36,859 bases of DNA from a virus (taxonomy: Duplodnaviria; Heunggongvirae; Uroviricota; Caudoviricetes), in IMG/VR virus record IMGVR_UViG_2541047855_000003; one strand, given 5' to 3'. The translations under genes were made by a program, and so were the position numbers. Below, piece after piece: positions 1-36,859 of the stretch. The notes beneath the pieces were generated by a model. The model made no database searches and had not been told where the DNA came from. It saw only the letters and a list, made by a program, of their open reading frames with translations. Within the stretch, counting starts at the first letter, position 1, and each line of letters opens with the position of its first letter.

Positions 1-59
1 GGTATCCGTTCTGCTGAAGTGTCATGGCGTTGATTTTACGGTGACTCTTCGACAGTGAA

Positions 60-85
60 AAGAAAAAAGGCCGCAGAGCGGCCAT
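60..85 (-). terminator. Possible rho-independent terminator downstream of the int-orphan transcript
   Basis: Short GC stem ggccg(69-73)/cggcc(79-83) with a 5-nt loop, adjacent to an A-run at 62-68 on + (T-run for minus-strand transcripts). Confidence 0.3.
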
Positions 86-189
86 AAACACAAACAAAAA
101 TCAATAAGTTAGATAATTATCAAAGACTTACAGACACACAAAAACACAGCCAACCACAACAAATAACAGGGATGTGGTCACTTTGTGGA

Positions 190-585
190 TCATTCGCTCC
201 CCTCTTTTTCCTTATTTCGTTGAACGCCAATTGCGACACACGTACTAAGCAAATCTTTACATTTCTCTACGTCTTCAGACTTACGCAATTTGATGCTTTT
301 TACAGACTGCGGGCTACTGTCCGTAGCACGATACATCGTTATTTCAATATCATTTCGGTCTAAGAGTCCCATAATGGCTTTTGCAACCTCCACACCCTTC
401 TTCGCGAAATCAAAGAACAGAGCAAGTTTATATGGATTTTCGACGGAAAAAACTTCAATTTTGCTAAAACCAACATCGTGTAGAGAAAAATATTGCTCAA
501 CCTCATCTCGAAGTTCTGGATCGCATACAATGTCTATTCTCCAGTACTGACCTAAATGCAAATCGCTATTAACTGTTTTTTCCAC
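190..585 (-). CDS. Hypothetical protein (about 131 aa), AT-rich orphan gene immediately downstream of int
   Basis: ORF 190..606 (minus). Likely GTG start at 585 with AGGAGG 5 nt upstream; 10-nt gap after the int stop; acidic/lysine-rich, no obvious TM segment; no family recognised. Confidence 0.5.
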   Translation of the reverse strand: MEKTVNSDLHLGQYWRIDIVCDPELRDEVEQYFSLHDVGFSKIEVFSVENPYKLALFFDFAKKGVEVAKAIMGLLDRNDIEITMYRATDSSPQSVKSIKLRKSEDVEKCKDLLSTCVAIGVQRNKEKEGSE

Positions 586-595
586 AACATCCTCC

Positions 596-1570
596 TTACC
601 CAGCAATAGGATTAAATCTCACCGCATCCTGCAAGTAATCCGGCGCAAGATGGGCATAAATCATCGTTGTCTGAATCTTTGCGTGCCCCAGAATTTTCTG
701 GAGCGTCAGAATATTGCCGCCGTTCATCATGAAATGACTGGCGAAGGTGTGGCGCAGCGCATGAACAGCCTGGCCGTCAGGAACATCAGGTGCGACCGTT
801 TTGATGACATCGCGAACCAATGGATAATCCAGCGTCGGAAACACCAGTTTCCCGCCCCGTTTTTTGATCTTTTCAAACAGGCTTTCAGAAATAGGAACGG
901 TACGGTTTTTGCTGTTCTTCGTTTTTGAAAAAGTGATTCGACAATGAAGAACACGGCGCTGCTCCAGTGCCGCTACCTCGCCCCATCGCGCCCCGGTCGA
1001 CAGAAGGATTTCGACAGCCAGCCGTTCATCGGGATTTTCAGCCAGTGCATCCAGCAACTGAACACATTCAGACTTACTCAGATATCCCATTTCGCGCTCG
1101 TTAACCTTCATTCCTTTAAGGCCTTGAACGGGGTTATCGTTTAGAAAATGGCCGGATGAGATGAGTGCGGTAAACATCGCGCTTAACGCCCCAATCTCTC
1201 GATTTATGGTGCTGGGCTGTATCCCCTGCTCTATCCTGGACACACGTAGCTCGGTGAGCATCGTTGTATTAAGTTTATGCACGCACGGGTCATCCATTGC
1301 CTCACTCAAGCGCAGCAATTTAAGGCGCGTGTTATGCCCTGACTTCATTAGCTGGCCGTGGTATTTCCACCACAAGTCAATAAGCACTGACAGAGGACGG
1401 CGATCAATAGAGTTTCCTTTCCACTCATTGTTATGCTGTTGCGCCAGCACCCACCGCTCATATAAAACTGCATCCGATTTCGTTTTAAATTTTTTGCGAA
1501 TGCGTTTGCCTTTACGCCCCTCAGGGCGCATGTCAAGAAGATACCCTCCCGGAATTGATTTTATGCTCAT
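596..1570 (-). CDS. int: Phage tyrosine integrase (site-specific recombinase)
   Basis: C-terminal motif HALRHTFASHF...LGHAKIQTTMIYAHL typical of tyrosine recombinases; about 325 aa from MSIKS; the long ORF to 1720 is probably an upstream in-frame extension. Confidence 0.9.
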   Translation of the reverse strand: MSIKSIPGGYLLDMRPEGRKGKRIRKKFKTKSDAVLYERWVLAQQHNNEWKGNSIDRRPLSVLIDLWWKYHGQLMKSGHNTRLKLLRLSEAMDDPCVHKLNTTMLTELRVSRIEQGIQPSTINREIGALSAMFTALISSGHFLNDNPVQGLKGMKVNEREMGYLSKSECVQLLDALAENPDERLAVEILLSTGARWGEVAALEQRRVLHCRITFSKTKNSKNRTVPISESLFEKIKKRGGKLVFPTLDYPLVRDVIKTVAPDVPDGQAVHALRHTFASHFMMNGGNILTLQKILGHAKIQTTMIYAHLAPDYLQDAVRFNPIAG

Positions 1571-2666: not shown

Positions 2667-2945
2667 ATGATCAAAGAGCATGCACAAGGTGTATTTATCC
2701 GTTTTATTGATTTTCGCGGTGAACTGTTATTGCGCGCATCAGCTATTGATGGAGTTGTCCCATCAGAAAAAAATGCAGCTACTTACGTTTATCTGAACGG
2801 CACGCGCCTGACCGTAGAACTTCCGTACCAGACTGTACAAGGAATCATTAGCGAAGCTGAAAAAGCACGTAAGATTAATGGCGATGAACCCTATATCGAA
2901 ATTATTTGTATGGATTCAGAAGCTGAAATTCAGAAAGCAGATTAA
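2667..2945 (+). CDS. Hypothetical early protein (92 aa)
   Basis: ATG at 2667 inside ORF 2607..2945; same-strand packing in the early operon. Confidence 0.5.
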   Translation: MIKEHAQGVFIRFIDFRGELLLRASAIDGVVPSEKNAATYVYLNGTRLTVELPYQTVQGIISEAEKARKINGDEPYIEIICMDSEAEIQKAD

Positions 2946-2956
2946 AGGGCGTTTCG

Positions 2957-3199
2957 ATGGGCAAAGAATATAAAACTCTCATTAACAAAGCACTTGAGCG
3001 TTTTTATTTTCGCTTAAGTGCATCAGGTGCTCATGCTGAACGTGCAGCCCGTGACTCATTGACCAGGGCAATCCGGAGTCTGTATGACGTGGCTTTTTAC
3101 GCTGATGATCTGGATGCACTTAACGAACTTTCCGAGCTGATCTGTGCCGCAGAATGCGGAGAGCATATTGAACCGTATAAGCTGGGGAATATTGCATGA
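2957..3199 (+). CDS. Hypothetical early protein (80 aa)
   Basis: ORF in the early operon; no family recognised. Confidence 0.5.
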   Translation: MGKEYKTLINKALERFYFRLSASGAHAERAARDSLTRAIRSLYDVAFYADDLDALNELSELICAAECGEHIEPYKLGNIA

Positions 3200-3309
3200 G
3201 TATATTTATCTCATGGCTTGTTCTGATTATTTCGGTGGTCTGCGCCATTGGGATTATGCAAATTATTCATTCAGTAAAAAAGATTGAACGCTTTTTCACT
3301 GGCGAATAA
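3196..3309 (+). CDS. Possible small hydrophobic protein (37 aa, single TM-like segment)
   Basis: ATG overlaps the previous stop (ATGA); translation MSIFISWLVLIISVVCAIGIMQIIHSVKKIERFFTGE; below the ORF-track length cutoff. Confidence 0.3.
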   Translation: MSIFISWLVLIISVVCAIGIMQIIHSVKKIERFFTGE

Positions 3310-3396
3310 CAGCGCAAATAAAAACCCTAGGTTAAATAAGAAAATGTAAAAACAATCCGCATTCGCGGAGGTATTCGCACACGCCCAGGAGGCGTA

Positions 3397-3600
3397 ATGG
3401 CAATTAAGCATTTTCCTGTCGTTCGTTTCACTTCCAGAGGACGTGAATACGAAGTCGACGAACGCCTGATTACCACAATCGACAAACACCGCTCAGAAAA
3501 GGATGCACACCACATCTATCTCACTGACGGTACTTACTTCTGCGCCACTAATGTGGCGCGGGTGAATCTTATCCGACAGGTACAGGATCCACGTAAATGA
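3397..3600 (+). CDS. Hypothetical early protein (67 aa)
   Basis: Strong RBS CAGGAGG 5-6 nt upstream of ATG 3397; stop overlaps the next start. Confidence 0.6.
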   Translation: MAIKHFPVVRFTSRGREYEVDERLITTIDKHRSEKDAHHIYLTDGTYFCATNVARVNLIRQVQDPRK

Positions 3601-3815
3601 GCAGGAGAAGAATCACTCGCAGACATCACCGCACACACCTGAATTCCTCAGCAACGCTAAAGGCACTTATTCAAAGCGAGATCGGTGATTTCTTCGCGGG
3701 AGTTGGCTCACCAGGTGAACCAGAAACACCAGAAGCGATGCAGCGTGAGCTCATGATACGCATAGATAACACTTTTGATTTCTTCTACAGCATGCACGGA
3801 ATTAAACAGAAATGA
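3597..3815 (+). CDS. Hypothetical early protein (72 aa), arginine/histidine-rich N-terminus
   Basis: ORF overlapping the previous stop (translational coupling). Confidence 0.5.
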   Translation: MSRRRITRRHHRTHLNSSATLKALIQSEIGDFFAGVGSPGEPETPEAMQRELMIRIDNTFDFFYSMHGIKQK

Positions 3816-3923
3816 ACCTCAAGCCAGCAATAACTACTCGTAGAACGCCAATTTCTGTAACCGACCGCTTCTGAGTTTTTTGGCAGGAAGCCTTCGCACA
3901 TCCTTAGTAGAGAGAATTGCAGC

Positions 3924-4313
3924 ATGATTGACGCTCATGACTTCACAAGATGGGTGCGCACACAGGACACCCGTCTGGCTCCCGTTCTCCAAGGATTATT
4001 GGATCTTTACATCCGTGGTCGTGACAACAGAGCACGCACTACAAAACCGGAGAATGTGGATACCCTTTATTTCACAGTAGACGACTGCTACCGCGTGGAC
4101 TTCACACCACACGGACTGGCGTTGCACTGCCTGACACCGCACGGCGAATCACTGCTGGCGTATTACGACTCCCCGGCCTCCGTATTTGCGGCAATGCTGG
4201 CGCATCGCACTGCTGGCGGGTGTGCCTCGCTGAGTGAATACACCGCTGAATTTAACCGCCTTTCCACCATCTTCTTGCAGGAGTGGCAGCGCGTGACGGG
4301 ATACCAGCCATGA
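3924..4313 (+). CDS. Hypothetical protein (129 aa) immediately upstream of and coupled to gene A
   Basis: Stop TGA 4311-4313 overlaps the A start ATG 4310-4312. Confidence 0.55.
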   Translation: MIDAHDFTRWVRTQDTRLAPVLQGLLDLYIRGRDNRARTTKPENVDTLYFTVDDCYRVDFTPHGLALHCLTPHGESLLAYYDSPASVFAAMLAHRTAGGCASLSEYTAEFNRLSTIFLQEWQRVTGYQP

Positions 4314-7093
4314 GTGAGTTTGCATGGAGCTGGAATGAACCACGACCAGCCATTGATCCGGCCAGATTTACGGAGCACAGGCAGGAAACTGAAACCGACC
4401 TGCAACGCGCCATCCGTTACTACCTTGAGGCAGACAAAAAGGCTCTGGAAGAACAGGAAGCGAAGGAGGAAGCCTTTTTCGCACAATCCACCGTGGGTAA
4501 AAAACTCATGGCATCCCTTGAGGAAGCCGGACAGCGTGAAAAGCTGGCACAAAGCATCATCAGCAAGCGTCAGGCAACAGAACAAGACCCGGTGGCCCGT
4601 GCTTTTGCCACACTGAAGGTGCTTCCCGTTTATCTGCGTGAACCTCTGAGCCGCCACCTCTCTTTCCTGCGCAAAAAACAGGAAGCCGATCGCCAGAAAG
4701 GCAAAAAGAGCTGGCAGGCTGAACGCTACGCGCGCGGAACCCTGCGCAAAATATTCGAACGTCTGGACCGCACCGATCACCGCTGGCTGACACCGGGTTA
4801 TCGCTCCCTTGCCGGACGCAAACGCCAGGACGATTTGCTTTACCTGCCGCAGCTCAACAAACACCAGATACAGACGCTGGCCACCATGACGGCGGCGATG
4901 TTCAGCAGCACCTTCGAAAAACTCTGCGATGGCTTTGGCGCGACTGATGGCGAACTGACCATGGATGTAACGCTGAAGGCGTATCAGATGCTGGCCCGCA
5001 TGGCGTTACACCTGCACACCATGCCTCCACATTATGACGCACTGACAACAGACAAAGACCGGAGGAACGAACCGGACACGGAGCTGCTGCCGGGCGCAAT
5101 CCTTCGCCTGACCTGTGCGGAATGGTGGAAACGCAAACTGTGGCTGTTACGTTGCGAGTGGAGAGAAGAACAACTCCGCGCCGCCTGTCTGGTTTCCAGA
5201 AAAACATCACCCTATCTGAGCCAGGACGCGTTAAGCGAGTTTCGCGCACAGCGCGAGAAAACACGCGATTTCCTGAAAAGTTTCATGCTGGAAAACGAAG
5301 ACGGGTTCACGATTGATCTCGAGACAGTGTATTACGCGGGAGTAAGTAACCCGGTTCACCGTAAGGCAGAAATGATGGCCACCATGAAGGGGCTGGAACT
5401 TCTGGCCGAGGCCCGTGGCGACAAAGCGGTGTTTCTGACTGTCACCTGCCCGTCAAAATACCACGCAACAACGGAGAACGGTCATCCAAACCCCAAATGG
5501 AACGGGGCCACCATGCGCGACTCCAGCGATTACCTGGTTAACACATTTTTTGCGGCGGTCCGCAAGAAACTGAACCGCGACGGCCTGCGCTGGTATGGCA
5601 TCCGCACGGTGGAGCCTCACCATGACGGCACCGTGCACTGGCATATGATGGTCTTTGCTCATCCGGAAGAAATCGACACCATTGTGTCCCACACCCGCGA
5701 TATTGCCATTCAGGAAGATCGTCACGAGCTGGGCGATGATATTACTCCGCGCTTTAAGGCGGAGTATGTCGACGGCTCAAAAGGCACGCCAACCAGCTAC
5801 ATCGCCACCTACATCGGAAAAAACCTGGACAGCCGCGCCGTGGATGGCATCGACCCGAAAACAGGCAAACCACGCGTTGACCACGAAACCGGAAAATCAA
5901 TGGCCGAGAGCGTGGAGCGCGCCATCGGCTGGGCGCGCCTTCACCGGGTCCGCCAGTTCCAGTTCTTTGGCATCCCCTCCCGTCAGGTGTGGCGTGAACT
6001 GCGCCGTCTTGCCAGCCAGATGGCACGCAACCCGGAAGGCCCGCAACGGCTGAAGGATGACGCAATGGATGCGGTACTCGCTGCCGCTGATGCCGGGTGT
6101 TTTGCCTCCTACATTGAAAAACAGGGTGGCGTACTTGTTCCACGCAAGGACTACCTGATTCGCACCGCCTACGACCTCGCAGATGAGCTGAACGATTACG
6201 GCGAACAGAGCGTACAGATTTACGGGATCTGGTCACCACTCATCGGGGAATCCTCCCGTGTGTGCACGCACCCGGATAACTGGAAGCTGGTAAGACGTAA
6301 ACCGGAAGCGGAAGACAGCACCCGCGAAAATGATTTTGACCTTCAGGGCGGCCCTGCCGCCCCTTGGACTCGTGGCAATAACTGTCCCCGTGTACAGGAA
6401 ACGGACAACAACGGGACAGAACAGCCGGAAGAACGGCCAGCACTGTGGCCGCAGCTTCCTGACGGCGTTGATGTGGATGAATGGATGCGCTCACTGAAAC
6501 GGCACGAACGCCGGGCGCTGATGCGTTCGCTTCGTGACAAACAGGCAAAAAACAGCAGTGATGAAATGCAGAGCTGGACACAGAGCCGCAAACAGCAGCG
6601 GCCTTTGCCTGATAACCACGAATTACTCGCTAAAGAATGGCGGGAATCTGCCGAATCTCTCGGCCTGCATATCGGTGAACAGCAGATGCAGCACCTGTTA
6701 CGAGGCGGCAGTCTGTACGTTGACGGCAGCATCATTGCACCGCAGGGATTTGAAATTGTACGCAAACCAGATACCCGACCGGACAGCCGAATCACGCAGC
6801 TCTGGCAGCGCCTGAGCCGTAATCACGGCGTAAACAGCACGGAAATCCGTCATAACCCGGTTTCCAGCTATCTGAAACAGCTCGGGGCATCAGACCCAGA
6901 AGCCGCTGCACGCCTGGCATCCACAATTCAGCAGGACCAGAACACCATGAAAACTCCCGTTACCGTGCTTTCTGACATGCTGCGCGCCATCCGTGACGCA
7001 GAGCACGCACAGAGAATCAATGAAACCACTGAACGCGCACGTCACAAGGCGAGTCTGTTGCAGGACAAAGGCAATAGCGAGAAGAAAAAATAA
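4310..7093 (+). CDS. A: Replication initiation endonuclease (P2 gpA-like, rolling-circle initiator)
   Basis: Motifs HWHMMVF and YIATYIGKN (paired catalytic tyrosines) typical of the phage GPA family; position after the early genes; long C-terminal region. Confidence 0.9.
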   Translation: MSEFAWSWNEPRPAIDPARFTEHRQETETDLQRAIRYYLEADKKALEEQEAKEEAFFAQSTVGKKLMASLEEAGQREKLAQSIISKRQATEQDPVARAFATLKVLPVYLREPLSRHLSFLRKKQEADRQKGKKSWQAERYARGTLRKIFERLDRTDHRWLTPGYRSLAGRKRQDDLLYLPQLNKHQIQTLATMTAAMFSSTFEKLCDGFGATDGELTMDVTLKAYQMLARMALHLHTMPPHYDALTTDKDRRNEPDTELLPGAILRLTCAEWWKRKLWLLRCEWREEQLRAACLVSRKTSPYLSQDALSEFRAQREKTRDFLKSFMLENEDGFTIDLETVYYAGVSNPVHRKAEMMATMKGLELLAEARGDKAVFLTVTCPSKYHATTENGHPNPKWNGATMRDSSDYLVNTFFAAVRKKLNRDGLRWYGIRTVEPHHDGTVHWHMMVFAHPEEIDTIVSHTRDIAIQEDRHELGDDITPRFKAEYVDGSKGTPTSYIATYIGKNLDSRAVDGIDPKTGKPRVDHETGKSMAESVERAIGWARLHRVRQFQFFGIPSRQVWRELRRLASQMARNPEGPQRLKDDAMDAVLAAADAGCFASYIEKQGGVLVPRKDYLIRTAYDLADELNDYGEQSVQIYGIWSPLIGESSRVCTHPDNWKLVRRKPEAEDSTRENDFDLQGGPAAPWTRGNNCPRVQETDNNGTEQPEERPALWPQLPDGVDVDEWMRSLKRHERRALMRSLRDKQAKNSSDEMQSWTQSRKQQRPLPDNHELLAKEWRESAESLGLHIGEQQMQHLLRGGSLYVDGSIIAPQGFEIVRKPDTRPDSRITQLWQRLSRNHGVNSTEIRHNPVSSYLKQLGASDPEAAARLASTIQQDQNTMKTPVTVLSDMLRAIRDAEHAQRINETTERARHKASLLQDKGNSEKKK

Positions 7094-7193
7094 CCAAGAA
7101 AGAAATCATCAATTGTATGAAGGTAGAGTTTAGACATGGTAAGGACGTTCCATGAGGCACACTGTAATTTCATATAGTATTCCTCTTCCCTGT

Positions 7194-7227
7194 TTGATAA
7201 AAAAGTGCAATACTATAAATAGTCCAG
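7194..7227 (+). promoter_or_regulatory. Candidate sigma70 promoter for cargo island 1
   Basis: TTGATA, about 16-nt spacer, TAAATA, in the AT-rich gap between gene A and the ATPase gene. Confidence 0.3.
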
Positions 7228-7273
7228 TTAAATGCTTTTTCAATTCACTTAAAATCAAGAGGTTACAATTAAG

Positions 7274-8395
7274 ATGGGCGACTTAGGTGGTATTCAGTCA
7301 GATTTAGCCCAACTAGTTAGACTGGTAATAGCTGAACAGTATGATGACGTTCGGTTATATGTCGCTCGCTTGGTGCGTAAATATCGGGAAACTATGCCTG
7401 CTCTATCCGAGCAGCTTGATCTTTATCTACGAAATAAACCGCAAAAGCCTGCACAAAGTCTGCGTAAGGTTACCGCACCAAAACAAGCGCTGCCTCAAAC
7501 CATGCCTGTGGACGAGGAGTCAAGGCTTACCTTGCTTAAAGCACCAAATGAAAAGATTGTGAGCAAACCTCTACTGTCCAGTCAGATAGAAGACTCACTG
7601 GATCAAATTATTCTTGAGCGGAAGCACATCGATCGCCTCAAGGCTCTCGGCTTACAACCAACACGCTCTGCCATTTTTGTTGGCCCTCCGGGTGTAGGTA
7701 AAACACTTACGGCAAGCTGGTTAGCTCAGAAATTAGGGGTTCCTTTTTACGTTCTTGATTTAACGGCAGTAATGAGCAGCTATCTGGGCAAAAGCGGAAA
7801 TAACCTTCGGGCAGCTCTAGATTTTGCGAAGAAAGGGCCGTGCGTTCTTCTGTTAGATGAAATTGATTCAATCGCCAAAAAGAGAAGTGATGATTCTGAT
7901 GTTGGAGAATTAAAAAGACTTGTTACCGTGATACTCCAGGAGGTTGACGAATGGCCGTCTTCTAGTTTGCTACTTGCTGCAACTAACTTCGCTGAGTTGA
8001 TTGATCCAGCACTATGGAGACGTTTTGATTTAGTGCTCAATTTTGAGAAGCCAGATAGTGAAAGTATTAAAGAAGCAATTAAACGCTTTTCAGGTCCCGA
8101 CTACGCGATTTTTGCACGTTGGATAGATCTACTGGCTATTATGTTCAAAAATGAATCTTTTAGTAATATTGAGCGTTCTATCAACAAATTCCGACGTTCG
8201 GTCGCTTTAGGTATTTCCTCAGATGAAGAGTTGATTGGGTCGTTCATTAAAGATGGTTTATCAGAATTAGACAGGAATGAACGTAAAGAAATTGCAGTTA
8301 CTCTAAAAAGAAATTCTAAATTATCCCAGCATGCCATATCAGACTTAACCGGAGTCAGTAGGGATACAATTAGAAAATACAGTCAAAAAATGTAA
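7274..8395 (+). CDS. ietA: Classic AAA+ ATPase with C-terminal HTH-like tail (IetA-like defence ATPase candidate)
   Basis: Walker A GPPGVGKT (K143, about nt 7700), Walker B LLLDEID, sensor-1 LLLAATN, arginine-finger region PALWRRFD; C-terminus LSQHAISDLTGVSRDTIRKY resembles an HTH. Symbol is from remembered architecture, not a search. Confidence 0.8.
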   Translation: MGDLGGIQSDLAQLVRLVIAEQYDDVRLYVARLVRKYRETMPALSEQLDLYLRNKPQKPAQSLRKVTAPKQALPQTMPVDEESRLTLLKAPNEKIVSKPLLSSQIEDSLDQIILERKHIDRLKALGLQPTRSAIFVGPPGVGKTLTASWLAQKLGVPFYVLDLTAVMSSYLGKSGNNLRAALDFAKKGPCVLLLDEIDSIAKKRSDDSDVGELKRLVTVILQEVDEWPSSSLLLAATNFAELIDPALWRRFDLVLNFEKPDSESIKEAIKRFSGPDYAIFARWIDLLAIMFKNESFSNIERSINKFRRSVALGISSDEELIGSFIKDGLSELDRNERKEIAVTLKRNSKLSQHAISDLTGVSRDTIRKYSQKM

Positions 8396-8418
8396 TACAG
8401 CATAGATAAGGAGTATGT

Positions 8419-10644
8419 ATGGCGAAAACTAATTTTCTGATTGGACGCGGCGAATTATTAACCAGCGATATTCCTGGTCCTAAAAGAGTGCCCGGAAAAG
8501 CTGAGGTTTATTCTCTTTACGAATCGAAACAACGTTTATTGCCGCAAATTGCATCTACTATAGAAAATTTTGATGATTTACCCAGTCAGGCATGTCCTTA
8601 TGATTATGCTGTGGCTAAGTTGACGTTGAATCCGAGCTATATTGCACGCTCTTTTTTTCCTGCAAAAATGCTTAAGTCTACCGGGTTAACGTCTATTGGC
8701 AGCAGGACGGTAAAAATTACGCCTCAAAGCTGGAAGCGAAAAGTTACTGTGTCAGAAGTAACTACGACACAAATGTTTGTTGCTGGTAAAAGAGAATCCT
8801 TCAAAGAGTTACCTCATTGGGTGTCAGGACTCAAAGAGTTTTCTGACGAAGCGATTGATTTTGCACGCATAGAACGGTTCGATGCCTATTTACCCGAAGA
8901 GCGTATTATTACCATTGGTGAGCAGGATTCTTCGTATTTTGAGGTTGGTGTTCATTTACTGCCAGATAATGAACAAGACTTGGTTCAGCAACAATTTGTT
9001 CAGTTTGCATCAAATTTGAACATCAAAGTACATACTTCATTAGCTTTTACCGCTGGTACATTATGGTTCGTGCCAATCCAGGCCGATAGAATTACTATTA
9101 GTAAGCTTGCGAAATTTACATTTGTACGAGTAATAAGACCGGTTCCAAGATTGCGTGGGATTAGACCAATACAAAGGAACTACGGTCCTTTAGCTCAGTG
9201 TAAGTTGCCTGCTGAGGGCCCCGTATCTTCAGAAATAAAAGTTGCGATTCTTGATGGTGGTTTACCATCAGAGCACACTATATCGCCATGGTTAAAATCC
9301 TATAGAGTTTTGGACGATCATGCAGAGGATGATCCAGACGGTTTAGAGCATGGTTTAGCTGTGTCTTCAGCCTTTTTATTTGGACCAATAAGTAATAAAT
9401 CGGAAGCGAAAAGACCATACTCTTATATTGATAACTTAAGAGTTTTGGACAACAAGACCTGCCAAGAAGATCCGCTGGAACTATATCGAACTTTGGGCTT
9501 TATTGAAGAGGTATTGTTGTCTCGCCAGTATCAGTTTATCAATCTAAGTTTAGGTCCAGACCTACCAATTGAAGATACGGAAGTTCATGCATGGACTTCC
9601 GTTATTGATGATTTGTTAAGTGATGGTGAAACATTAATGACTGTTGCTGTTGGCAACAATGGAGAAATGGATCGCAAGTCTGGTAATGCAAGAATTCAAG
9701 TACCAGCCGATTGCGTTAATGCTCTTGCTGTTGGTGCTTGTGATACAGTTAATGATACGGAATGGAAACGAGCACCATATAGCGCCATTGGGCCAGGCAG
9801 AAGTCCTGGCGTGATGAAACCGGATTTAGTTGCGTTTGGTGGTGACACAGACGAGTACTTTCATGTTTTAGGTAAAGGTAAGAAGCCTGTAATCATACCC
9901 CAGCTAGGAACAAGCTTTGCCTCTCCTTACGCCTTACGAGCAGCTGTTGGTGTTCGGGCAGTTTTAGGGAACGATTTGAGCCTACTAGCAATCAAAGCTT
10001 TGTTAATTCATGCGTCAAAACAGCTTGATCATCCTTGTACAGAAGTTGGCTGGGGAAAACTGCCTGAAGACTTGAACGACATTATAGTCAGCCCTGATGG
10101 TATTGCCCGTATCGTCTACCAAGGTGAATTGAAACCAGGAAAATACTTACGCGCTTCTCTTCCAATACCTGAAGGTGGCTTGAAAGGTAGAATAAACTTA
10201 GCGGCAACTTTCTGTTATGCAACAACCACTGATCCACAAGACCCAGCTTCCTATACAAAAGCTGGTTTGGAAGTGACATTCCGGCCAAATGATTCAAAAA
10301 TCAAAGACGGAAAACAAAATGCTGAAACCAAGGGATTCTTTGAACTGGCCAAATATTCAACTGAAAGTGAGCGACGTTCTGACATGGGCAAATGGGAGAC
10401 CGTCTTACATAATTCGAAGAACATGCTAGGTTCAACTCTAAAAAATCCTGTATTTGACATTCATTATAACGCTCGTGAGGCCGGTGCAAGCATAGCCAGC
10501 CATAAGGCAGAAAAAATCAAGTATGCTCTTATAATTACCATTAAGGCATCAAAGCACCAAGACCTGTATAACGAAATTTTACGTACTTATAATCAGGTGC
10601 TCGTGCCAATTCAACCGCAAACATCAATTCCTATTCGTTCGTAA
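8419..10644 (+). CDS. ietS: Cytoplasmic subtilisin-like S8 serine peptidase with large N- and C-terminal extra domains (IetS-like candidate)
   Basis: S8 triad in canonical order: D279 (VAILDGG, nt about 9253), H311 (EHGLAVSS, about 9349), S499 (GTSFASP, about 9913), oxyanion Asn in VGNNGE; no N-terminal signal peptide; AAGGAG RBS 5 nt upstream. Confidence 0.85.
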   Translation: MAKTNFLIGRGELLTSDIPGPKRVPGKAEVYSLYESKQRLLPQIASTIENFDDLPSQACPYDYAVAKLTLNPSYIARSFFPAKMLKSTGLTSIGSRTVKITPQSWKRKVTVSEVTTTQMFVAGKRESFKELPHWVSGLKEFSDEAIDFARIERFDAYLPEERIITIGEQDSSYFEVGVHLLPDNEQDLVQQQFVQFASNLNIKVHTSLAFTAGTLWFVPIQADRITISKLAKFTFVRVIRPVPRLRGIRPIQRNYGPLAQCKLPAEGPVSSEIKVAILDGGLPSEHTISPWLKSYRVLDDHAEDDPDGLEHGLAVSSAFLFGPISNKSEAKRPYSYIDNLRVLDNKTCQEDPLELYRTLGFIEEVLLSRQYQFINLSLGPDLPIEDTEVHAWTSVIDDLLSDGETLMTVAVGNNGEMDRKSGNARIQVPADCVNALAVGACDTVNDTEWKRAPYSAIGPGRSPGVMKPDLVAFGGDTDEYFHVLGKGKKPVIIPQLGTSFASPYALRAAVGVRAVLGNDLSLLAIKALLIHASKQLDHPCTEVGWGKLPEDLNDIIVSPDGIARIVYQGELKPGKYLRASLPIPEGGLKGRINLAATFCYATTTDPQDPASYTKAGLEVTFRPNDSKIKDGKQNAETKGFFELAKYSTESERRSDMGKWETVLHNSKNMLGSTLKNPVFDIHYNAREAGASIASHKAEKIKYALIITIKASKHQDLYNEILRTYNQVLVPIQPQTSIPIRS

Positions 10645-10660
10645 TCCTTCAAGACATAAT

Positions 10661-10688
10661 GCCCCTCAATTTGAGGGGCATTTCTTTG
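10661..10688 (+). terminator. Rho-independent terminator after the subtilase gene
   Basis: Stem GCCCCTCAA / TTGAGGGGC followed by ATTTCTTT. Confidence 0.65.
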
Positions 10689-10713
10689 CACAAAAGTGCA
10701 CAAATTTGCACAA
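10687..10713. repeat. Three helically phased TGCACAA direct repeats (10-bp period)
   Basis: TGCACAA at 10687-10693, 10697-10703 and 10707-10713. Confidence 0.6.
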
Positions 10714-10739
10714 TTTTTTTGAACAACTTTTTACCCTTC

Positions 10740-11137
10740 CGGCCCGCATGGCGGCTGGATCCGTCAAGGATCCGTGCGTGCACAAAAAAACGCGTTTTTT
10801 CTGCGCGCAGGTGACGGGGGAACAGCCCGCGTTTCAGGGGGTAAATAGCATCCCCTGAACGATGTCGCAGCGACACAACAGAATGGCTGTATTTCTCACG
10901 CTGAGCGTGAAAAAGGCGTGAGGGCTTTTGATTTGATGGGGTGGCAGATAAGGCCGTCAAAATCGCACTGAAGCGGCGAGAACATACAGTCAACGCGGTG
11001 GGATTGCGTAAGAGTCTGACCGTCGATGGTGGCGATAAACTGGAAGGCGTCGTGAAATTATCTGATTGATACAGGAGCTGGAGAGTCGGGGCATAAATTT
11101 TTTATGCCCCGGCGAAGCAGCAGACAAGCGAAGCGCG
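10740..11137. other. Structured non-coding region between cargo island 1 and portal gene; putative packaging (cos) region
   Basis: GGATCCGT twice (10757-10764, 10768-10775), palindrome AAAAAAACGCGTTTTTT (10784-10800), G-rich segment GGTGACGGGGGAACAGCCC (10810-10828) loosely resembling the remembered P2 cos ends, palindrome GGGGCAT...ATGCCCC (11083-11105). Exact cos not assignable. Confidence 0.3.
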
Positions 11138-12184
11138 TCAGGATGTGGGCTGGGTGTCTAACAGTGCGTAAGGGTTAAAGCGGATCACCTCTTCGCCAAG
11201 CCAGTCATTGATGTGCTTCATGGCCTCCATGACGGGCATCAGCTCGTTAATTGCGTAAACCCGCGCGGCCTTCTCCACATCACCAAATGCACTTTTTTCG
11301 CCCGGCATCGCCCCCATCAGTTGCGGCGGAACGCGGTGCACAGCCAGCACATCATCACGGGATGCCGCCTTAACATTCATGAACTCATCCTTTGCGGTGA
11401 TCTGCTGGAACGGCAAAATTTGCACACCTTCTTTGCCCCCGTTGGGCGCATGAATGAGCACGTTTTTAAACGCACCACCACCACGTGCACCCTGTAGCGT
11501 TTCTTTCAGGGAGTCCATGCTTTCGCGGTTTACCTGCGCTGCACCGATGTAGATGATACACCCGGCGTGGGATCCGTTGTCGTAATACAGTTTTCTGAAC
11601 ATGTCCGCCGAATGAGACAGGCTGGCCGAGAGTAATGCGCCGAGATATTCCGGCATGCCGTAGATTTCCTGGTTAATGTCAGGATTCATCAGGTGGCACA
11701 CTTTGCCAGGGCGAAACTGAAACGCGTCCTTACCATCCTGCACATACCACCATGATTCAAGATCGCTTCCGCGTCGCATGTATTTCGCCAGGGCGTGCCG
11801 TAATTTAAGCGGTTCGCCGAGCATATTGCTTCGAAGCTCAAGGAATGCGTTACCGAACACAAACCAGTCCAGCGCCAGCGCCGAGAAATCCTGCCGGGAA
11901 AGCAGCGGGTGCGGGATGTAGCAACCGAGTAATACATTGCGCTTAAAGTAAAGCGCAGACTGATGCCAGGACGTTTGCCGGGCTGCTCTTGCCAGACCGT
12001 ACCAGTCCACCGGGGTTTCATACCACCGCCCGTTATCAGCACAGTACATATTGTCCAGCAGGTCATGCCCGGTCAGGCGATAAGGACCATCAAATGTGAA
12101 TGCACTGAGCGATGATTCTTTCCTGAGCGCATCAGCGAGATCAATGCGTGAACTCATGCGCACTTTTTTATTTTTTCTGCTCAT
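11138..12184 (-). CDS. Q: Portal protein (P2 gpQ-like)
   Basis: 348 aa, minus strand, immediately downstream of the terminase ATPase gene as in P2; size matches gpQ. Confidence 0.85.
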   Translation of the reverse strand: MSRKNKKVRMSSRIDLADALRKESSLSAFTFDGPYRLTGHDLLDNMYCADNGRWYETPVDWYGLARAARQTSWHQSALYFKRNVLLGCYIPHPLLSRQDFSALALDWFVFGNAFLELRSNMLGEPLKLRHALAKYMRRGSDLESWWYVQDGKDAFQFRPGKVCHLMNPDINQEIYGMPEYLGALLSASLSHSADMFRKLYYDNGSHAGCIIYIGAAQVNRESMDSLKETLQGARGGGAFKNVLIHAPNGGKEGVQILPFQQITAKDEFMNVKAASRDDVLAVHRVPPQLMGAMPGEKSAFGDVEKAARVYAINELMPVMEAMKHINDWLGEEVIRFNPYALLDTQPTS

Positions 12185-22346: not shown

Positions 22347-24806
22347 ATGAGTACCACAACACGAAAATTTAAAACCGTTATCACCGATACGGGTGCCAAA
22401 AAATTAGCTCAGGCAGCCGCGCCAGATGGTAAGCCTGTCCGCCTGACTCATATGGCCGTGGGCGACGGTGGCGGTACATTGCCCACACCAGACAGTAAGC
22501 AGACCCGTCTGGTGCATGAGGTGTGGCGACATACTGTTAATCGCATCATCCTGGACGCAACACATCAGAACCGCATTATTGCAGAGCTGGTTATTCCTCC
22601 TGAAACGGGCGGATTCTGGATCCGGGAAATTGGTGTGTTTGATGAGCACGGCGATTTGATCGCGGTGGGCAATACTGCCGAAAGTTACAAGCCAGCCGTT
22701 GCCGAAGGGTCCGGACGTGCACAAACATTTCGCACCATTCTGACCGTATCCAGCACTGCCACCGTGGCGCTTACCGTGGATAACACCATGGTTATGGCCA
22801 CAGTGGATTACGTGAATGACAAACTGAAAGAACATGAACAGTCACGACGTCATCCGGACGCCTCGCTGACCGCAAAAGGCTTTGTTCAACTCAGTAGCGC
22901 CACCAACAGCACGTCTGAAGCACTGGCCGCAACGCCGAAAGCGGTCAAGGCAGCCTATGACCTTGCTAACGGGAAATATACCGCACAGGACGCCACTACA
23001 GCGCGAAAAGGTCTTGTCCAGCTCAGTAGTGCCACCAACAGCACGTCTGAAACGCTCGCCGCAACACCAAAAGCGGTAAAGGCCGCGTATGACCTTGCTA
23101 ACGGGAAATACACTGCACAGGACGCCACCACAGCGCGAAAAGGTCTTGTCCAGCTCAGTAGCGTCACCAACAGCGATTCTGAAACGCTCGCCGCAACACC
23201 AAAAGCGGTTAAGGCAGCGTATGATCTTGCTAACGAAAAATATACCGCACAGGACGCCACCACAGCGCGAAAAGGCCTTGTTCAGCTCAGTAGCGCCACC
23301 AACAGCGATTCTGAAACGCTGGCGGCAACGCCAAAGGCGGTTAAGACAGCGTATGACCTTGCTAACGGGAAATACACTGCACAGGATGCCACCACGGCGC
23401 GGAAAGGTCTTGTTCAGCTTAATAGTGCCATCAACAGCGATTCTGAAACGCTGGCTGCAACACCAAAAGCGGTGAAGTCTGCCTATGACAATGCTGAAAA
23501 ACGTCTTCAGAAAGATCAGAACGGTGCGGATATTCCGGGAAAGGATACCTTCACGAAAAATATCGGTGCCTGTCGTGCTTATAGCGGTGCTTTGAGCACT
23601 GAATCCGGAAACTGGACAACCGCTCAGTTTATTGAATGGCTGGATTCCCGTGGTGCATTTAATCATCCGTACTGGATGTGCAAAGGCTCCTGGTCATATG
23701 CAAATAACAAAATCATTACGGATACCGGATGTGGTGATATCCACCTGGCTGGTTGTGTCGTCGAGGTCATGGGAACTAAATCTGCAATCACTATCCGAGT
23801 GACCACGCCGACAACATCAAGCGGTGGCGGTACAACCAGCGCGCAATTCACTTACATAAATCATGGGGACGGCTACTCCCCCGGCTGGCGTCGTGACTGG
23901 AATCGTCAGGGCGACGCAATGACCGGAACGATTAATCAGGATGGCGGAAGCCAGAATGCCTATATGTCTACGGCCTTATGTTCAGGCACCAGAGGCGGCA
24001 AAAAATATCTCAGAAAGTTTCGTGGTGGAGAAGGAGACACTATCTGGCATGAAACAGTACAGGCTGGGGTAATTCGCTGGGCGACAGGTAATACTGATGC
24101 TCAGGAAGAATTATCACTCAGCTCCGCTTATGGTCTCCGTTCTAGAGGTGAAATTACATCACTCAGTGCTAATGGTCTGCGCATTGCTTATGGCAATTAT
24201 GGATTCTTTATCAGGAATGATGGTGGCAGCACATATTTAATGCTGACGACCTCTGGCGATAAATTTGGGACATGGAACGGTTTAAGGCCGCTGACTATCA
24301 ATAACGCTAATGGCGGAGTGTCAATGGGGCATGGCCTGAGTGTTACTGGTGATATTGTCTCAAGTACCAAAGTACGTGCCGGTAGCGGGAAAAAACTCAC
24401 GGTCAGCAGCAGTAATACATCCACGAAGGAAGCCGCATTCAATTTGTGGGGAAACTCAAGTCGCCCGGTGGTAGCTGAATTAGGTGATGATGCAGGCTGG
24501 CATTTTTACAGCCAAAGAAATACAGATAACAGCATCACTTTTGCTGTTAACGGGCAGGTATCACCATCTAACTATGGCAACTTTGATTCACGTTATGTCC
24601 GGGATATTAGACTTGGTGGTGCGTCATCCTATAAACCAGCAAATAACGGGACAACATGGACGCATCAGACTCCATCTGGTTGCGCGTATACCGGGATAAT
24701 TGTTCAGGATACAGGCTCAAATTCTGCCGATAATATTGGTGGTGTTTATTACAGACCAATTCAAAAAAATATTAATGGCACATGGTATAACGTATCGAGT
24801 GTTTGA
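22347..24806 (+). CDS. H: Tail fibre protein H with internal tandem repeats and divergent C-terminal receptor-binding region
   Basis: N-terminus MSTTTRKFKTVITDTGAKKLAQA... is gpH-like; 819 aa; five in-frame 44-aa repeats; C-terminal third is lower-GC. Confidence 0.9.
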   Translation: MSTTTRKFKTVITDTGAKKLAQAAAPDGKPVRLTHMAVGDGGGTLPTPDSKQTRLVHEVWRHTVNRIILDATHQNRIIAELVIPPETGGFWIREIGVFDEHGDLIAVGNTAESYKPAVAEGSGRAQTFRTILTVSSTATVALTVDNTMVMATVDYVNDKLKEHEQSRRHPDASLTAKGFVQLSSATNSTSEALAATPKAVKAAYDLANGKYTAQDATTARKGLVQLSSATNSTSETLAATPKAVKAAYDLANGKYTAQDATTARKGLVQLSSVTNSDSETLAATPKAVKAAYDLANEKYTAQDATTARKGLVQLSSATNSDSETLAATPKAVKTAYDLANGKYTAQDATTARKGLVQLNSAINSDSETLAATPKAVKSAYDNAEKRLQKDQNGADIPGKDTFTKNIGACRAYSGALSTESGNWTTAQFIEWLDSRGAFNHPYWMCKGSWSYANNKIITDTGCGDIHLAGCVVEVMGTKSAITIRVTTPTTSSGGGTTSAQFTYINHGDGYSPGWRRDWNRQGDAMTGTINQDGGSQNAYMSTALCSGTRGGKKYLRKFRGGEGDTIWHETVQAGVIRWATGNTDAQEELSLSSAYGLRSRGEITSLSANGLRIAYGNYGFFIRNDGGSTYLMLTTSGDKFGTWNGLRPLTINNANGGVSMGHGLSVTGDIVSSTKVRAGSGKKLTVSSSNTSTKEAAFNLWGNSSRPVVAELGDDAGWHFYSQRNTDNSITFAVNGQVSPSNYGNFDSRYVRDIRLGGASSYKPANNGTTWTHQTPSGCAYTGIIVQDTGSNSADNIGGVYYRPIQKNINGTWYNVSSV
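22862..23496 (+). repeat. In-frame tandem repeat array inside H (about 4.8 copies of a 132-bp / 44-aa unit)
   Basis: Unit TAQDATTARKGLVQLSSATNS(T/D)SETLAATPKAVKAAYDLANGKY repeats with a few substitutions; period checked as 132 nt between recurring AAAAGG anchors. Confidence 0.9.
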
Positions 24807-25342
24807 TTATGATGCATTTAAAAAATATAAAACCGGGCAATCCAAAAACCAAAGAACAGTACCTGTTAACTAAAAACTCCAGCGTTGTCTGGTTATTCGA
24901 TGAAGATGGTAAAAACTGGTATGATGAACAAAAGAACTTTCAACCAGATACTATAAAGATTGCATATGATGAAAATAATGTCATATGCGACGTGCAAATG
25001 GATGTAACTGCAATTTGCCCAGAAGGAAAAAGTGTTGTCGAGTTGCCCAATATCACAGCAAACCGACGTGCTGATATTTCAGGTAACTGGATGTTTAAGG
25101 ATGGCGCAGTCATTAAACGTGTGTATACCGAAGAAGAGCAACGATTGCAGGCTGAAAACCAGAAACAAAGGTTATTACAACAGGCCAGAGAAAAAACGCA
25201 GTTCTGGCAAACCCAGCTTACTTTGGGGATTATCACTGATTCAGACAGACAGCAACTGATGAACTGGATGCGATACGTGCAACAGATTGAAGCCACTGAT
25301 ACCTCTGAATTGCCCGTTACATTTCCGGAACAACCAGAATAA
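24803..25342 (+). CDS. G: Tail fibre assembly chaperone (gpG/Tfa-like)
   Basis: 179 aa directly after H, overlapping the H stop; position and size typical of Tfa chaperones. Confidence 0.8.
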   Translation: MIMMHLKNIKPGNPKTKEQYLLTKNSSVVWLFDEDGKNWYDEQKNFQPDTIKIAYDENNVICDVQMDVTAICPEGKSVVELPNITANRRADISGNWMFKDGAVIKRVYTEEEQRLQAENQKQRLLQQAREKTQFWQTQLTLGIITDSDRQQLMNWMRYVQQIEATDTSELPVTFPEQPE

Positions 25343-25375
25343 ACGATAAGACCAGAATACCGGGTCTTATCGTTT
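25343..25375. terminator. Bidirectional hairpin terminator between convergent G (+) and U (-)
   Basis: Stem ACGATAAGACC (25343-25353) / GGTCTTATCGT (25363-25373) with 9-nt loop; T-rich flanks on both strands; only about 41 bp separate the two stop codons. Confidence 0.65.
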
Positions 25376-25383
25376 CTGTTAAA

Positions 25384-25878
25384 TCAGAACAGCCCTTTAA
25401 CTGAACTGGCCGCGTTGTTAATGGATGCTGTCACCTTATCTTTGAAGCCGGACAGCATATCGCTGAACGATGAGGATTGCAGGCGCTCCCGCAAATCCTC
25501 ATCACAGCGTTCAAGGGTCAGTGAAAATTCTATCTTTTTCGCCTTACCGTAGCGATCAAACTCGGAACTGGTCGTATTCGTTCCGGTCAGGACATACATG
25601 CCGTAAATCTGCCCGACGCCATCAATAAGAGGCCAGGGGCGTCCTGTATACGCCTGCGTGGTCAGCAGCGACAGCGACACTTCGCCACCTGTAATTTCAG
25701 GATAAAGCACACCAGAAAGAACAATACGATCATCGCCTGCCCCGATATACTGCCAGCTTGCTGAACGGTTAACGCGTTCATTTTTCACATGTCGCCAGCT
25801 TTTATTTTGCTGTAACTGCTGATGCGGCAATGTGCGCAGCTCAAAAACAAACATGCCGTAGATCATCATCATGGCCAT
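25384..25878 (-). CDS. U: Tail protein U (gpU-like)
   Basis: Motifs SWRH, LSGVLYPEITGG, WPLIDGVGQIYGMY resemble gpU. Confidence 0.85.
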   Translation of the reverse strand: MAMMMIYGMFVFELRTLPHQQLQQNKSWRHVKNERVNRSASWQYIGAGDDRIVLSGVLYPEITGGEVSLSLLTTQAYTGRPWPLIDGVGQIYGMYVLTGTNTTSSEFDRYGKAKKIEFSLTLERCDEDLRERLQSSSFSDMLSGFKDKVTASINNAASSVKGLF

Positions 25879-30959: not shown

Positions 30960-31116
30960 AGCTTCAGCCCCTTGTATCCGTTAAATGATTCGGCAACAAT
31001 CATCACCCACCACGCGCGTAATCTCACCCCTGCGCCGTTCTCCCGCCACGGCGACAACAAAAAGCAGTAACCCCCTACGCACGCACATGCGACCATGCCG
31101 CACAGGGAGGGAACAG

Positions 31117-32226
31117 ATGACCGATACCACCATGCAATTGCTCAGTCAGAGCACAGACCCCGTGAAAATGCCGGATTTTGATATTCTCGCGGAGGGGGAA
31201 ACACTGTCCGGCGTGGCAGAGCGCCTGATGAGCCTGTCACTGACCGACAACCGGGGATTTGAAGCGGACCAGCTCACCATCACGCTGGATGATGCGGATG
31301 GTCAGTTGCAGCTACCGCCACGGGGCGTGCGCCTGACGGTTCTCATTGGCTGGAAAGGAGAACCGCTGACAGAAAAAGGCACTTACATTGTTGATGAAAT
31401 CGCTCACGAAGGACCGCCGGACAGGCTGACGGTTTCAGCCAGAAGCGCAGATTTTCGGGATGAATTTAACGTTAAACGTGAGGTGTCCTGGCATGATGTG
31501 ACCGTTGAGCGCGTGGTATCCGCCATCGCTCATCGGTATGGTCTGAAACCGCAAATCAGCGAAATGCTGATGGATATAGAAATCGACCACGCCGACCAGA
31601 CCGAAGAAAGCGACATGTCCTTTCTTACGCGCATGGCGGAAATGCTGGGCGCAATCACCACAGTAAAAAGCGGTAATCTGTTATTCATCATGCCCGGTGG
31701 TGGCGTGAACGCACAGGGCCAGCCGTTGCCATCGTTCGCCATCACACGCAGCAGCGGCGATCGCCATCAGTTCCGCATTGCTGACCGCGAGGCGTATACG
31801 GGTGTACGCGCCTACTGGCTTGATCTTAATTACGGGAAAAAGAAAAAAGTCAGCGTGAAACGCCGCAAACCGCAAAAACCCAAAAAGGAGAAAAGCAGCA
31901 GCCGTGAAGGTGATTATATGGAAGGCGCGGAAGGCAACGTGTTTGTGTTACGCAAGACTTATCAGAACGAGCAGGCAGCAAGACGCGCAGCGGCGGCAAA
32001 GTGGCAGCAGCTACAACGCGGAGCCGCAGCGTTCTCCATCACACTGGCACGTGGACGCGCAGAACTCTACCCCGAAATGCATGGCACGGTAACAGGATTT
32101 AAAAGCGAAATTGATAATCAGGACTGGATTATTGCAAAAGCCGAGCACACCATTGATAACAGCGGCTTTACCACGCAGCTTGAACTTGAGGCAAAAATCC
32201 CGGAATGGATAGCAGAAACAGCTTGA
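31117..32226 (+). CDS. D: Tail protein D (late control gene D-like)
   Basis: ATG 31117 with GGGAGG RBS; about 370 aa with lysine-rich internal stretch; position before ogr. Confidence 0.8.
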   Translation: MTDTTMQLLSQSTDPVKMPDFDILAEGETLSGVAERLMSLSLTDNRGFEADQLTITLDDADGQLQLPPRGVRLTVLIGWKGEPLTEKGTYIVDEIAHEGPPDRLTVSARSADFRDEFNVKREVSWHDVTVERVVSAIAHRYGLKPQISEMLMDIEIDHADQTEESDMSFLTRMAEMLGAITTVKSGNLLFIMPGGGVNAQGQPLPSFAITRSSGDRHQFRIADREAYTGVRAYWLDLNYGKKKKVSVKRRKPQKPKKEKSSSREGDYMEGAEGNVFVLRKTYQNEQAARRAAAAKWQQLQRGAAAFSITLARGRAELYPEMHGTVTGFKSEIDNQDWIIAKAEHTIDNSGFTTQLELEAKIPEWIAETA

Positions 32227-34428: not shown

Positions 34429-34430
34429 TG

Positions 34431-36852: not shown

Positions 36853-36859
36853 GCAGTAA
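36719..36859 (+). CDS. hok: Hok/Gef-family type I toxin (small membrane protein)
   Basis: 46 aa MSQKSLTAITFCVTAILIIWMLHGSLCEIRMSFWGAEFAAFLQCKQ: N-terminal TM helix plus the family motif SLCEIR and AAF; AAGGAG RBS; stop TAA is the last codon of the window. Confidence 0.8.
   Translation: MSQKSLTAITFCVTAILIIWMLHGSLCEIRMSFWGAEFAAFLQCKQ

Follow-up and report, generated by a model that had tools for sequence, protein, structure and literature searches.

What does a P2-like prophage carry in a stretch of AT-rich DNA between its replication gene and its portal gene, and what might that DNA do for the lysogen? The question is raised by IMG/VR record IMGVR_UViG_2541047855_000003, a stretch of 36,859 nucleotides (the window, meaning the whole of the DNA analysed here). 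A first-pass annotation, made from the letters alone, had read two neighbouring genes in this interval as an AAA+ ATPase and a cytoplasmic S8 subtilase and had compared them to the IetAS defence family. Our sequence comparisons leave us confident that this interval is an IetAS cassette, in which an operon of two genes specifies an AAA+ ATPase, IetA, and a cytoplasmic, subtilisin-like protease, IetS. It very probably represents exchangeable cargo for lysogenic conversion, housed in the gpA-gpQ hotspot of an Escherichia coli prophage of the P88-like kind (Xuanwuvirus, Peduoviridae). By analogy with studied relatives, an anti-phage toxin-antitoxin mode for this pair is, together with its identity, well supported.

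Both genes match the defence profiles of PADLOC nearly from end to end. The product of the first matches IetA (PDLC02196; E = 9.2e-78), with residues 9-372 aligned to positions 5-370 of a 374-position profile, and the product of the second matches IetS (PDLC02197; E = 3.7e-51), with residues 36-726 on positions 38-733 of 749. Pfam searches find AAA in the first protein (2.6e-30) and Peptidase_S8 at residues 271-546 of the second (1.5e-19). The AAA, Peptidase_S8 and PADLOC searches that the annotation had recommended returned significant matches, and the end-to-end PADLOC alignments bear out its assignment. The two genes are indeed co-directional, ietA preceding ietS on the plus strand (coordinates in Table 1). 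They are separated by 23 nt, with an AAGGAG ribosome-binding site ahead of ietS, and form one tightly coupled operon. Several features that mark an IetAS pair are present here: gene order and direction, full-length profile matches, complete ATPase motifs, and a complete S8 triad with its oxyanion residue.

The ATPase motifs of IetA lie where they had been placed by eye, with GPPGVGKT at residues 137-144 (including K143), LLLDEID at 192-198, and RRFD at 249-252. K143, D195/E196, the sensor 1 residue N238, and the arginine-finger pair R249/R250 of the second region of homology are invariant in 52 homologues and were aligned with Cdc48. The AAA core is nearest to the classic clade: p97, Cdc48 and VAT entries in the PDB are matched at about 1e-45, and the NCBIfam models matched are those for CDC48, the proteasomal ATPase PAN, and FtsH. 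By these comparisons IetA is a Cdc48/proteasome-type (classic-clade) AAA+ ATPase. The annotation had also described a helix-turn-helix (HTH)-like tail. This element is near-invariant in the 52 homologues, but its profile match stays below Pfam thresholds (HTH_11, 8e-4). A C-terminal HTH is also present in the representative IetA of the type described by Gao et al. (2020).

In IetS, the S8 triad D279, H311 and S499 is complete, as the annotation had read it; the oxyanion residue N413 is present too, and all four are invariant in 133 homologues. The protein was correctly said to lack a signal peptide (maximum 10-residue Kyte-Doolittle value of 0.92 in the first 45 residues), and it has no transmembrane segment (maximum 19-residue value of 1.53). 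A signal-peptide or membrane reading of IetS was rejected on these values.

The regions on either side of the catalytic core, an N-terminal domain of about 260 residues and a C-terminal domain of about 210, had been noted as of unknown function. Their presence stands, but that description does not: structure prediction, which had been suggested as a check, models them as propeptide-like and β-sandwich domains, accessory domains typical of subtilases. The AlphaFold model reached a predicted local distance difference test score (pLDDT) of 85 and a predicted template modelling score of 0.89 from an alignment of 133 sequences in two clades. An earlier model, built on just 75 sequences at ≥64% identity, was confident in its other regions but gave the S8 core a pLDDT of about 30. 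In Foldseek searches the best matches of the IetS model are unprocessed pro-subtilases, with aligned lengths that exceed the catalytic domain, and isolated propeptide folds are matched as well. In the model, IetS looks like an unprocessed pro-subtilase, with a propeptide-like domain, an S8 core and a P-domain-like β-sandwich, plus an extra N-terminal unit. Its predicted fold and domain order resemble those of pro-subtilisin E (3whi), ProN-Tk-SP (3afg), PCSK9, EpiP and clostridial CspB; Tk-SP and KP-43 also share the β-jelly-roll after the S8 core. These enzymes are secreted or compartmental, whereas IetS has no signal peptide and no Inhibitor_I9 match, and it differs further in its extra ferredoxin-like unit, an invariant N-terminal peptide and an AAA+ partner. 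In that peptide N5, L7, G9, G11 and E12 are invariant. Between the propeptide-like unit and the core, linker residues R237, R240, P243, R246 and P250 are invariant in the 133 sequences, whose two clades are about 43% identical, and the motif is recognisable in IteS of the Gao type.

We defined the junctions of the island by where homology to four P88-type phages (P88, PhiR44_2, 503458 and Chuche) stops and returns. Homology is lost at 7038-7050 and regained at 10680-10687, so that the left border of the island falls in the final codons of the replication gene and its right border just past the terminator. The annotation's limits of 7094-10720 captured a genuine low-GC island but not its exact borders, which lie at about 7051 and 10680. 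GC content at 7094-10720 is 0.411, compared with 0.563 in the replication gene to the left and 0.538 in the portal and terminase genes to the right. The two 60-nt samples that had been counted by hand were exact (35.0% at 9001-9060 and 68.3% at 5581-5640). The flanking genes are the Phage_GPA and portal genes of a Peduoviridae prophage. The window matches, at 99.8-100% identity, a part of the E. coli HSP60 genome adjoining btuC, where integrase, replication endonuclease, portal, terminase, P2-family capsid and tail genes are annotated, and the closest sequenced phages are P88 and other members of Xuanwuvirus. Scans of the whole window with Rfam and tRNA models gave no matches, which argues against a tRNA attachment site or a known RNA regulator. 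We also tried to place cos from its likeness to the 19-mer and junction of P2 cos, but dropped the attempt: the best match in 10645-11140 is 13 of 19, no better than elsewhere in the window and at chance level.

Table 1. Coordinates of the IetAS cassette, its flanks, regulatory elements and protein domains (nucleotide positions in the window; residues of the named protein).
Feature	Nucleotides	Residues	Strand	Description
Replication endonuclease (gpA-like), left flank	4283..7093		+	936 aa; open reading frame call and annotation
Cargo island	7051..10680		.	about 3.63 kb, GC 0.41; inserted in the gpA-gpQ hotspot; homology break and GC trough
Left conserved block, left inverted-repeat arm	7161..7181		+	ACTGTAATTTCATATAGTATT; candidate operator; kept in Salmonella, Serratia and Klebsiella loci
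Right conserved block, right arm	7205..7228		+	GTGCAATACTATAAATAGTCCAGT; contains invariant TG-n-AATACT
ietA	7274..8395		+	AAA+ ATPase, classic clade, 373 aa; PADLOC, Pfam and Cdc48/p97 matches, 52-homologue alignment
IetA N-terminal conserved domain		1-100	+	conserved in homologues; without profile match
IetA AAA core		~105-270	+	Walker A K143, Walker B D195/E196, pore loop 1 Y170-L-G, RRFD 249-252
IetA C-terminal HTH	8291-8380	~340-369	+	LSQHAISDLTGVSRDTIRKY; weak profile match, near-invariant in 52 homologues
ietS	8419..10644		+	cytoplasmic S8 subtilase, 741 aa; PADLOC, Pfam, triad and N413
IetS long helix and two ferredoxin-like β-α-β-β-α-β units	8509..9141	31-241	+	units at ~63-156 and 173-241, the second I9-propeptide-like; predicted structure
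IetS Arg/Pro-rich linker	9127..9228	237-270	+	between prodomain-like unit and catalytic core
IetS S8 catalytic domain	9229..10068	271-550	+	Pfam and predicted structure
IetS C-terminal β-sandwich/jelly-roll	10081..10608	555-730	+	predicted structure
Intrinsic terminator	10658..10688		+	11-bp GC-rich stem, 3-nt loop, then TTCTTT
Portal protein (gpQ), right flank	11138..12184		-	open reading frame call and annotation

Comparison of site occupancy across related prophages, another suggested check, shows conserved flanks and varying content. Sixteen phage records match the island flanks only, and in P88, PhiR44_2, 503458 and Chuche the slot holds ParM, a partition protein and varying small open reading frames. 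Among 5,426 complete E. coli genomes, 43 have the whole island, at 99.6-100% identity across the 43. Together these observations indicate accessory cargo at a variable site. The annotation's placement of the site at the tin/old position of P2-type phages agrees with the P2 map, where tin and old occupy the slot between gene A and cos/Q, and with the other genes carried there by relatives. Both old and tin are non-essential lysogenic-conversion genes that exclude other phages, as the cassette probably does; their proteins are unrelated to IetA and IetS, and P2 has them on the opposite strand. The annotation had listed missing profile matches, a backbone-like GC content and presence in all related prophages as grounds for abandoning its proposal. 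We found that the profiles match, that GC content is unlike that of the backbone, and that the pair is absent from most related prophages.

Three side observations concern this site. P88-type relatives hold ParM (StbA) and a partition protein in the slot, where the window has no partition genes. To the right of the island, at about 10686-10722, lies a backbone block with three TGCACAA repeats (TTGCACAAAAGTGCACAAATTTGCACAATTTTTTTGA). In P2-like prophages of Salmonella and Klebsiella, and more loosely of Serratia, where the replication genes are only 28% identical, this block again follows the cargo terminator directly. It could serve as a recombination anchor or protein-binding site of the hotspot. 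In E. coli E06 (NZ_CM143910.1, 1650679-1655504), the S8 gene of the cassette is split by the IS5-like element ISKpn26, a natural inactivation.

The cassette moves between phage backbones. IetA homologues with 94%, 83% and 72% identity occupy the Phage_GPA-portal slot of P2-like prophages in Salmonella, Serratia and Klebsiella. At the Salmonella locus, identity to the window is 94% and 92% for the two cargo proteins, compared with 28% for the replication protein and 73% for the portal; over the three loci, cargo identity is 67-94% against only 28% for the replication protein. Cargo GC content is 0.41-0.43 at all loci compared, and that of the flanks is 0.55-0.57. By these measures the cassette is exchanged between P2-like lineages, with a composition and phylogeny decoupled from those of the backbone. 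Enterobacter phage phiT5282H (P2-like, Novemvirus) has a pair from a third IetAS clade in its A-portal slot (2922-6205). This pair shares 37% (IetA) and 38% (IetS) identity with the window proteins, and its ATPase gene bears the erroneous annotation ftsH. IetS relatives also turn up on conjugative plasmids, in a Pseudomonas Pf phage and in Paenibacillus phages.

This distribution bears on two explanations that leave out defence. IetA and IetS might together form a constitutive, ATP-dependent protease machine, in the manner of FtsH, Lon or the PAN-proteasome, that serves prophage regulation. The likeness of the AAA core to Cdc48, proteasomal ATPases and FtsH and the tight coupling of the genes in one operon would agree with this idea, but subtilases are not chambered, self-compartmentalised enzymes, and the toxin-antitoxin genetics reported for the family (PMC13069673) do not fit it. 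A role in phage regulation is also argued against by a cassette that is accessory, missing from most related phages and exchanged among unrelated backbones. We regard such a machine as very unlikely. That the cassette is decaying DNA, inert and without a present function, seems to us scarcely credible. Nothing specific speaks for decay apart from the one interrupted E. coli copy, whereas in the window both reading frames are intact with all catalytic residues in place, the 43 genomic copies are almost identical, length and motifs are kept in thousands of homologues, and the regulatory repeat and terminator are conserved.

Neither the pair nor its location is new. A survey of P2-like prophages named the gpA-gpQ locus a defence hotspot, with 1,650 arrangements in 18,150 loci and a plasmid-partition system at about a quarter of them (Rousset et al., 2022; PMC9122126). 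One row of its Table S5A reads 'AAA/HTH_50 + Peptidase_S8' and lists WP_000502619 and WP_001545554, which are the RefSeq accessions of an E. coli pair 100% identical to that of the window. The first-pass annotation thus recognised the gene pair correctly, but the pair is already known: with the same locus, gene order and proteins, it was catalogued in 2022. In the curated Table S5B, 'Peptidase_S8 | AAA ... ietAS (Gao et al., 2020)' ranks seventh with 400 occurrences; the representative IetA of that system differs from ours, with 43% identity. The survey itself assayed no IetAS system. Elsewhere, ietAS is reported to be common in porcine enterotoxigenic E. coli (PMC11267873) and often prophage-borne in E. 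coli (10.1101/2022.08.21.504612).

Published genetics of other members suggest how this pair may act. Anti-phage activity of IetAS members was demonstrated in three independent studies (PMC13069673; 10.1101/2022.08.27.505566; 10.1101/2022.08.21.504612). IetS is described as the toxin and IetA as the antitoxin; defence depends on the proteolytic activity of IetS, and construction of ietA mutants proved impossible in a related system (PMC13069673). The IetAS system of Bacillus cereus acts by abortive infection and becomes toxic once a single SPβ protein, YosG, is expressed (10.1101/2022.08.27.505566). The system ietHAS (Liu-DS4; PMC13069673) has the same IetA and IetS core, an antitoxin-like IetA and a protease needed for defence; it differs in a third gene for an SNF2-family helicase, which this cassette lacks. 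The annotation's remark that the IetAS mechanism is unresolved agrees with that paper, which dates from April 2026. Our literature search for an IetAS structure or mechanism (cryo-EM, propeptide, zymogen, unfoldase) returned nothing relevant, with subscription journals outside its coverage.

The founding IetA/IetS toxin-antitoxin pair was reportedly described by Yamamoto and colleagues in 2009 on the Agrobacterium plasmid pTiC58. We picked ietA and ietS in the pTiC58 sequence by position and architecture. As in the window, an AAA ATPase gene is followed by an adjoining S8 protease gene, and the two IetA proteins are 35% identical over the AAA core (E = 2e-41). The differences are considerable: the pTiC58 IetA has 328 residues and no HTH tail, its IetS (836 residues) is related to ours only at profile level (BLASTP E = 0.01), and the pair is plasmid-borne rather than part of a prophage.

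Is the cassette, then, mainly an addiction or maintenance module for the prophage, acting by post-segregational killing as on pTiC58, with any anti-phage effect secondary? We consider this rather unlikely, though several observations agree with it. IetAS was first described as a plasmid-stability toxin-antitoxin (cited in PMC13069673), related phages use this slot for ParM and partition genes, both of which serve maintenance, and the survey table includes an arrangement in which the pair is nested within a StbA ... Plasmid_stab_B module (PMC9122126). Relatives are also found on conjugative plasmids, beside type IV secretion system genes. Against a primarily addictive role stand the three demonstrations of anti-phage activity and the small profit that an integrated prophage would draw from post-segregational killing. 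Maintenance and defence are in any case compatible roles.

The DNA upstream of ietA suggests how the operon may be controlled. When the 240 nt preceding ietA are aligned for the E. coli, Salmonella, Serratia and Klebsiella loci, conservation falls mainly in two blocks (7161-7181 and 7205-7228) and the Shine-Dalgarno sequence; the rest has diverged. The blocks are inverted copies of one another. At their core is a perfect 9-bp inverted repeat, TATAGTATT (7173-7181) and AATACTATA (7209-7217), and the pattern TATAGTATT-N27-AATACTATA occurs once per locus, at equal offset, in E. coli, Salmonella and Serratia. The invariant TG-n-AATACT could be an extended -10 element, and the conserved inverted repeat overlaps the likely promoter. 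The promoter that the annotation had drawn at 7194-7227 did not hold up. Its match to consensus is 9 of 12, a level reached by 7 sequences here and by 7.3 expected in shuffled sequence, and its -35 box TTGATA (7194-7199) is unconserved in homologous loci; we set it aside in favour of the conserved inverted-repeat blocks. Among distant ietA genes, that of Paracoccus has an upstream inverted repeat and that of Dongshaea has none; in pTiC58 there is just a palindrome at the start codon. Such repeats lend weak and non-decisive support to autoregulation by IetA.

At the other end of the operon, the terminator proposed at 10661-10688 was confirmed. The hairpin at 10658-10682, followed by a T-run, has a predicted energy of -24.8 kcal/mol (z = -5.8 relative to shuffles). 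The syntenic loci in other genera each have a hairpin of different sequence in the same place, followed by the common backbone block. That each locus ends in a hairpin of its own argues that the terminator is real.

These genetic and anatomical observations can be combined into a scheme, a guarded zymogen, which we find the likeliest of the specific mechanisms but offer as a possibility only. IetS would be made as a zymogen, self-inhibited by its prodomain-like region. IetA would keep IetS latent in an ATP-dependent manner, and the HTH of IetA would repress the operon at the inverted repeat. On infection, a phage product would disable or divert IetA. IetS would then free itself from its prodomain and cleave essential proteins of the host or phage, and the lysogen would die before the competing phage matures. 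This scheme draws on published genetics of relatives together with modelled anatomy, and we would not call it probable. The same caution extends to its molecular details, in which IetS may be a cytoplasmic zymogen with an I9-like intramolecular inhibitor, IetA may act on the invariant IetS N-terminus and the prodomain, and autoprocessing may occur at the Arg/Pro linker.

The same parts could be wired in the opposite sense. IetA might be an activator that, on a phage cue, strips the N-terminal peptide and prodomain from IetS as an unfoldase and so switches the protease on. A classic-clade, unfoldase-type IetA with a pore-loop-1 motif, the invariant N-terminal peptide and pro-form-like build of IetS, and literature summaries in which both genes are required for defence would all agree with this arrangement. 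The genetics would not: IetS is toxic without IetA, and ietA mutants are unobtainable in a related system (PMC13069673), which is the opposite of what a pure activator predicts. We consider activation by IetA improbable.

Several points weigh against the guarded-zymogen scheme and, more generally, against carrying over results from other IetAS systems. Pore loop 1 reads Y170-L171-G172 in this protein and in those of Enterobacterales, and many other homologues have L-L-G at this place; with its aromatic residue unconserved, substrate threading by IetA is plausible and not secured. Autoregulation through the HTH cannot be family-wide, since the founding pTiC58 IetA lacks this tail. Pfam gives no Inhibitor_I9 match in IetS; up to an E-value of 0.1, Peptidase_S8 is its only match. 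The prodomain reading comes from a predicted structure. Our literature search found no experimental work on the IetAS clade of the window. Scores fall far below the NCBIfam equivalog cut-offs (IteA, 223.7 versus 510 bits; IteS, 133.5 versus 900 bits), and IetS is only 23% identical to a RefSeq-named plasmid IteS, collinear over residues 50-634.

We rejected NCBIfam IteA/IteS equivalog status on the basis of these scores, which also explain why RefSeq labels the proteins just 'AAA family ATPase' and 'S8 family peptidase'. The PADLOC profile PDLC02197 is itself centred on the Gao-type clade, matching the plasmid IteS of that clade at 1.4e-282. Gao-2020-type systems (NF042959/NF042956; PDLC02196/PDLC02197) resemble the window pair in having two genes whose products are of similar length and align throughout, with the propeptide-like region, the linker motif and the HTH at the C-terminus of IetA included; they differ in the low IetS identity and the wide shortfall from the NCBIfam cut-offs. 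By these comparisons the window pair is a clade apart from both the Gao-2020 type and the founding pTiC58 pair, and it has no dedicated profile. The clade has more than 2,000 database proteins of 738-741 residues, about 65% identical across Beta- and Gammaproteobacteria, and a sister clade stands at about 43% identity.

As a genome feature the cassette is ordinary: a known defence family in a known prophage hotspot, with the pair already in a published catalogue. If the guarded-zymogen scheme were true, it would provide a first mechanistic account of IetAS, in which an AAA+ unfoldase serves as the antitoxin of a pro-protease. Native to E. coli and from a large clade, this copy fits with its regulatory elements into a compact 3.6 kb and would give a handle on how IetAS senses phage and kills. 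The prodomain-like inhibitor, the invariant N-terminal peptide and linker, and the HTH with its operator-like repeat supply structural hypotheses for that purpose. A first-stage reading from raw sequence alone can recognise such cassettes.

Elsewhere in the prophage, a second defence island lies on the minus strand at 32395-35903, between late gene D and ogr, in a stretch of low GC content (0.38-0.41) from about 32.0 to 36.0 kb. The open reading frame at 32395-34434 matches HerA over its full length (PADLOC, 3.1e-252) and that at 34431-35903 matches SIR2 (3e-155). With IetAS and SIR2-HerA, the prophage carries two defence systems at two slots and is a natural two-system lysogenic-conversion element.

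Next to this island, gene D (30985-32226, plus strand) is an intact 413-residue reading frame in the window; in the 99.8%-identical HSP60 prophage it is annotated as a shorter VgrG/Pvc8-family coding sequence and a pseudogene fragment, with coordinates shifted by about 132 nt. The window therefore derives from a close relative of HSP60 and not from that strain. By offset from the HSP60 annotation, the right end holds an Ogr/Delta-like zinc-finger gene at about 36268-36528 and a Hok/Gef toxin gene at about 36719-36859. The window apparently stops at the end of hok, just short of ihfA, and Rfam at its gathering threshold detects no Sok-type RNA in the window. At the other end, between btuC and the integrase gene, a small open reading frame (190-606, minus strand, 138 residues) lies in a stretch with a GC content of 0.40. 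It is annotated as a hypothetical protein in HSP60, has no PADLOC match, and may be a further cargo or moron gene at the attachment-site end. A dip in GC content to 0.38-0.47 at 24001-25500, in the tail-fibre and tail-fibre-assembly region, is probably the usual mosaic host-range module.

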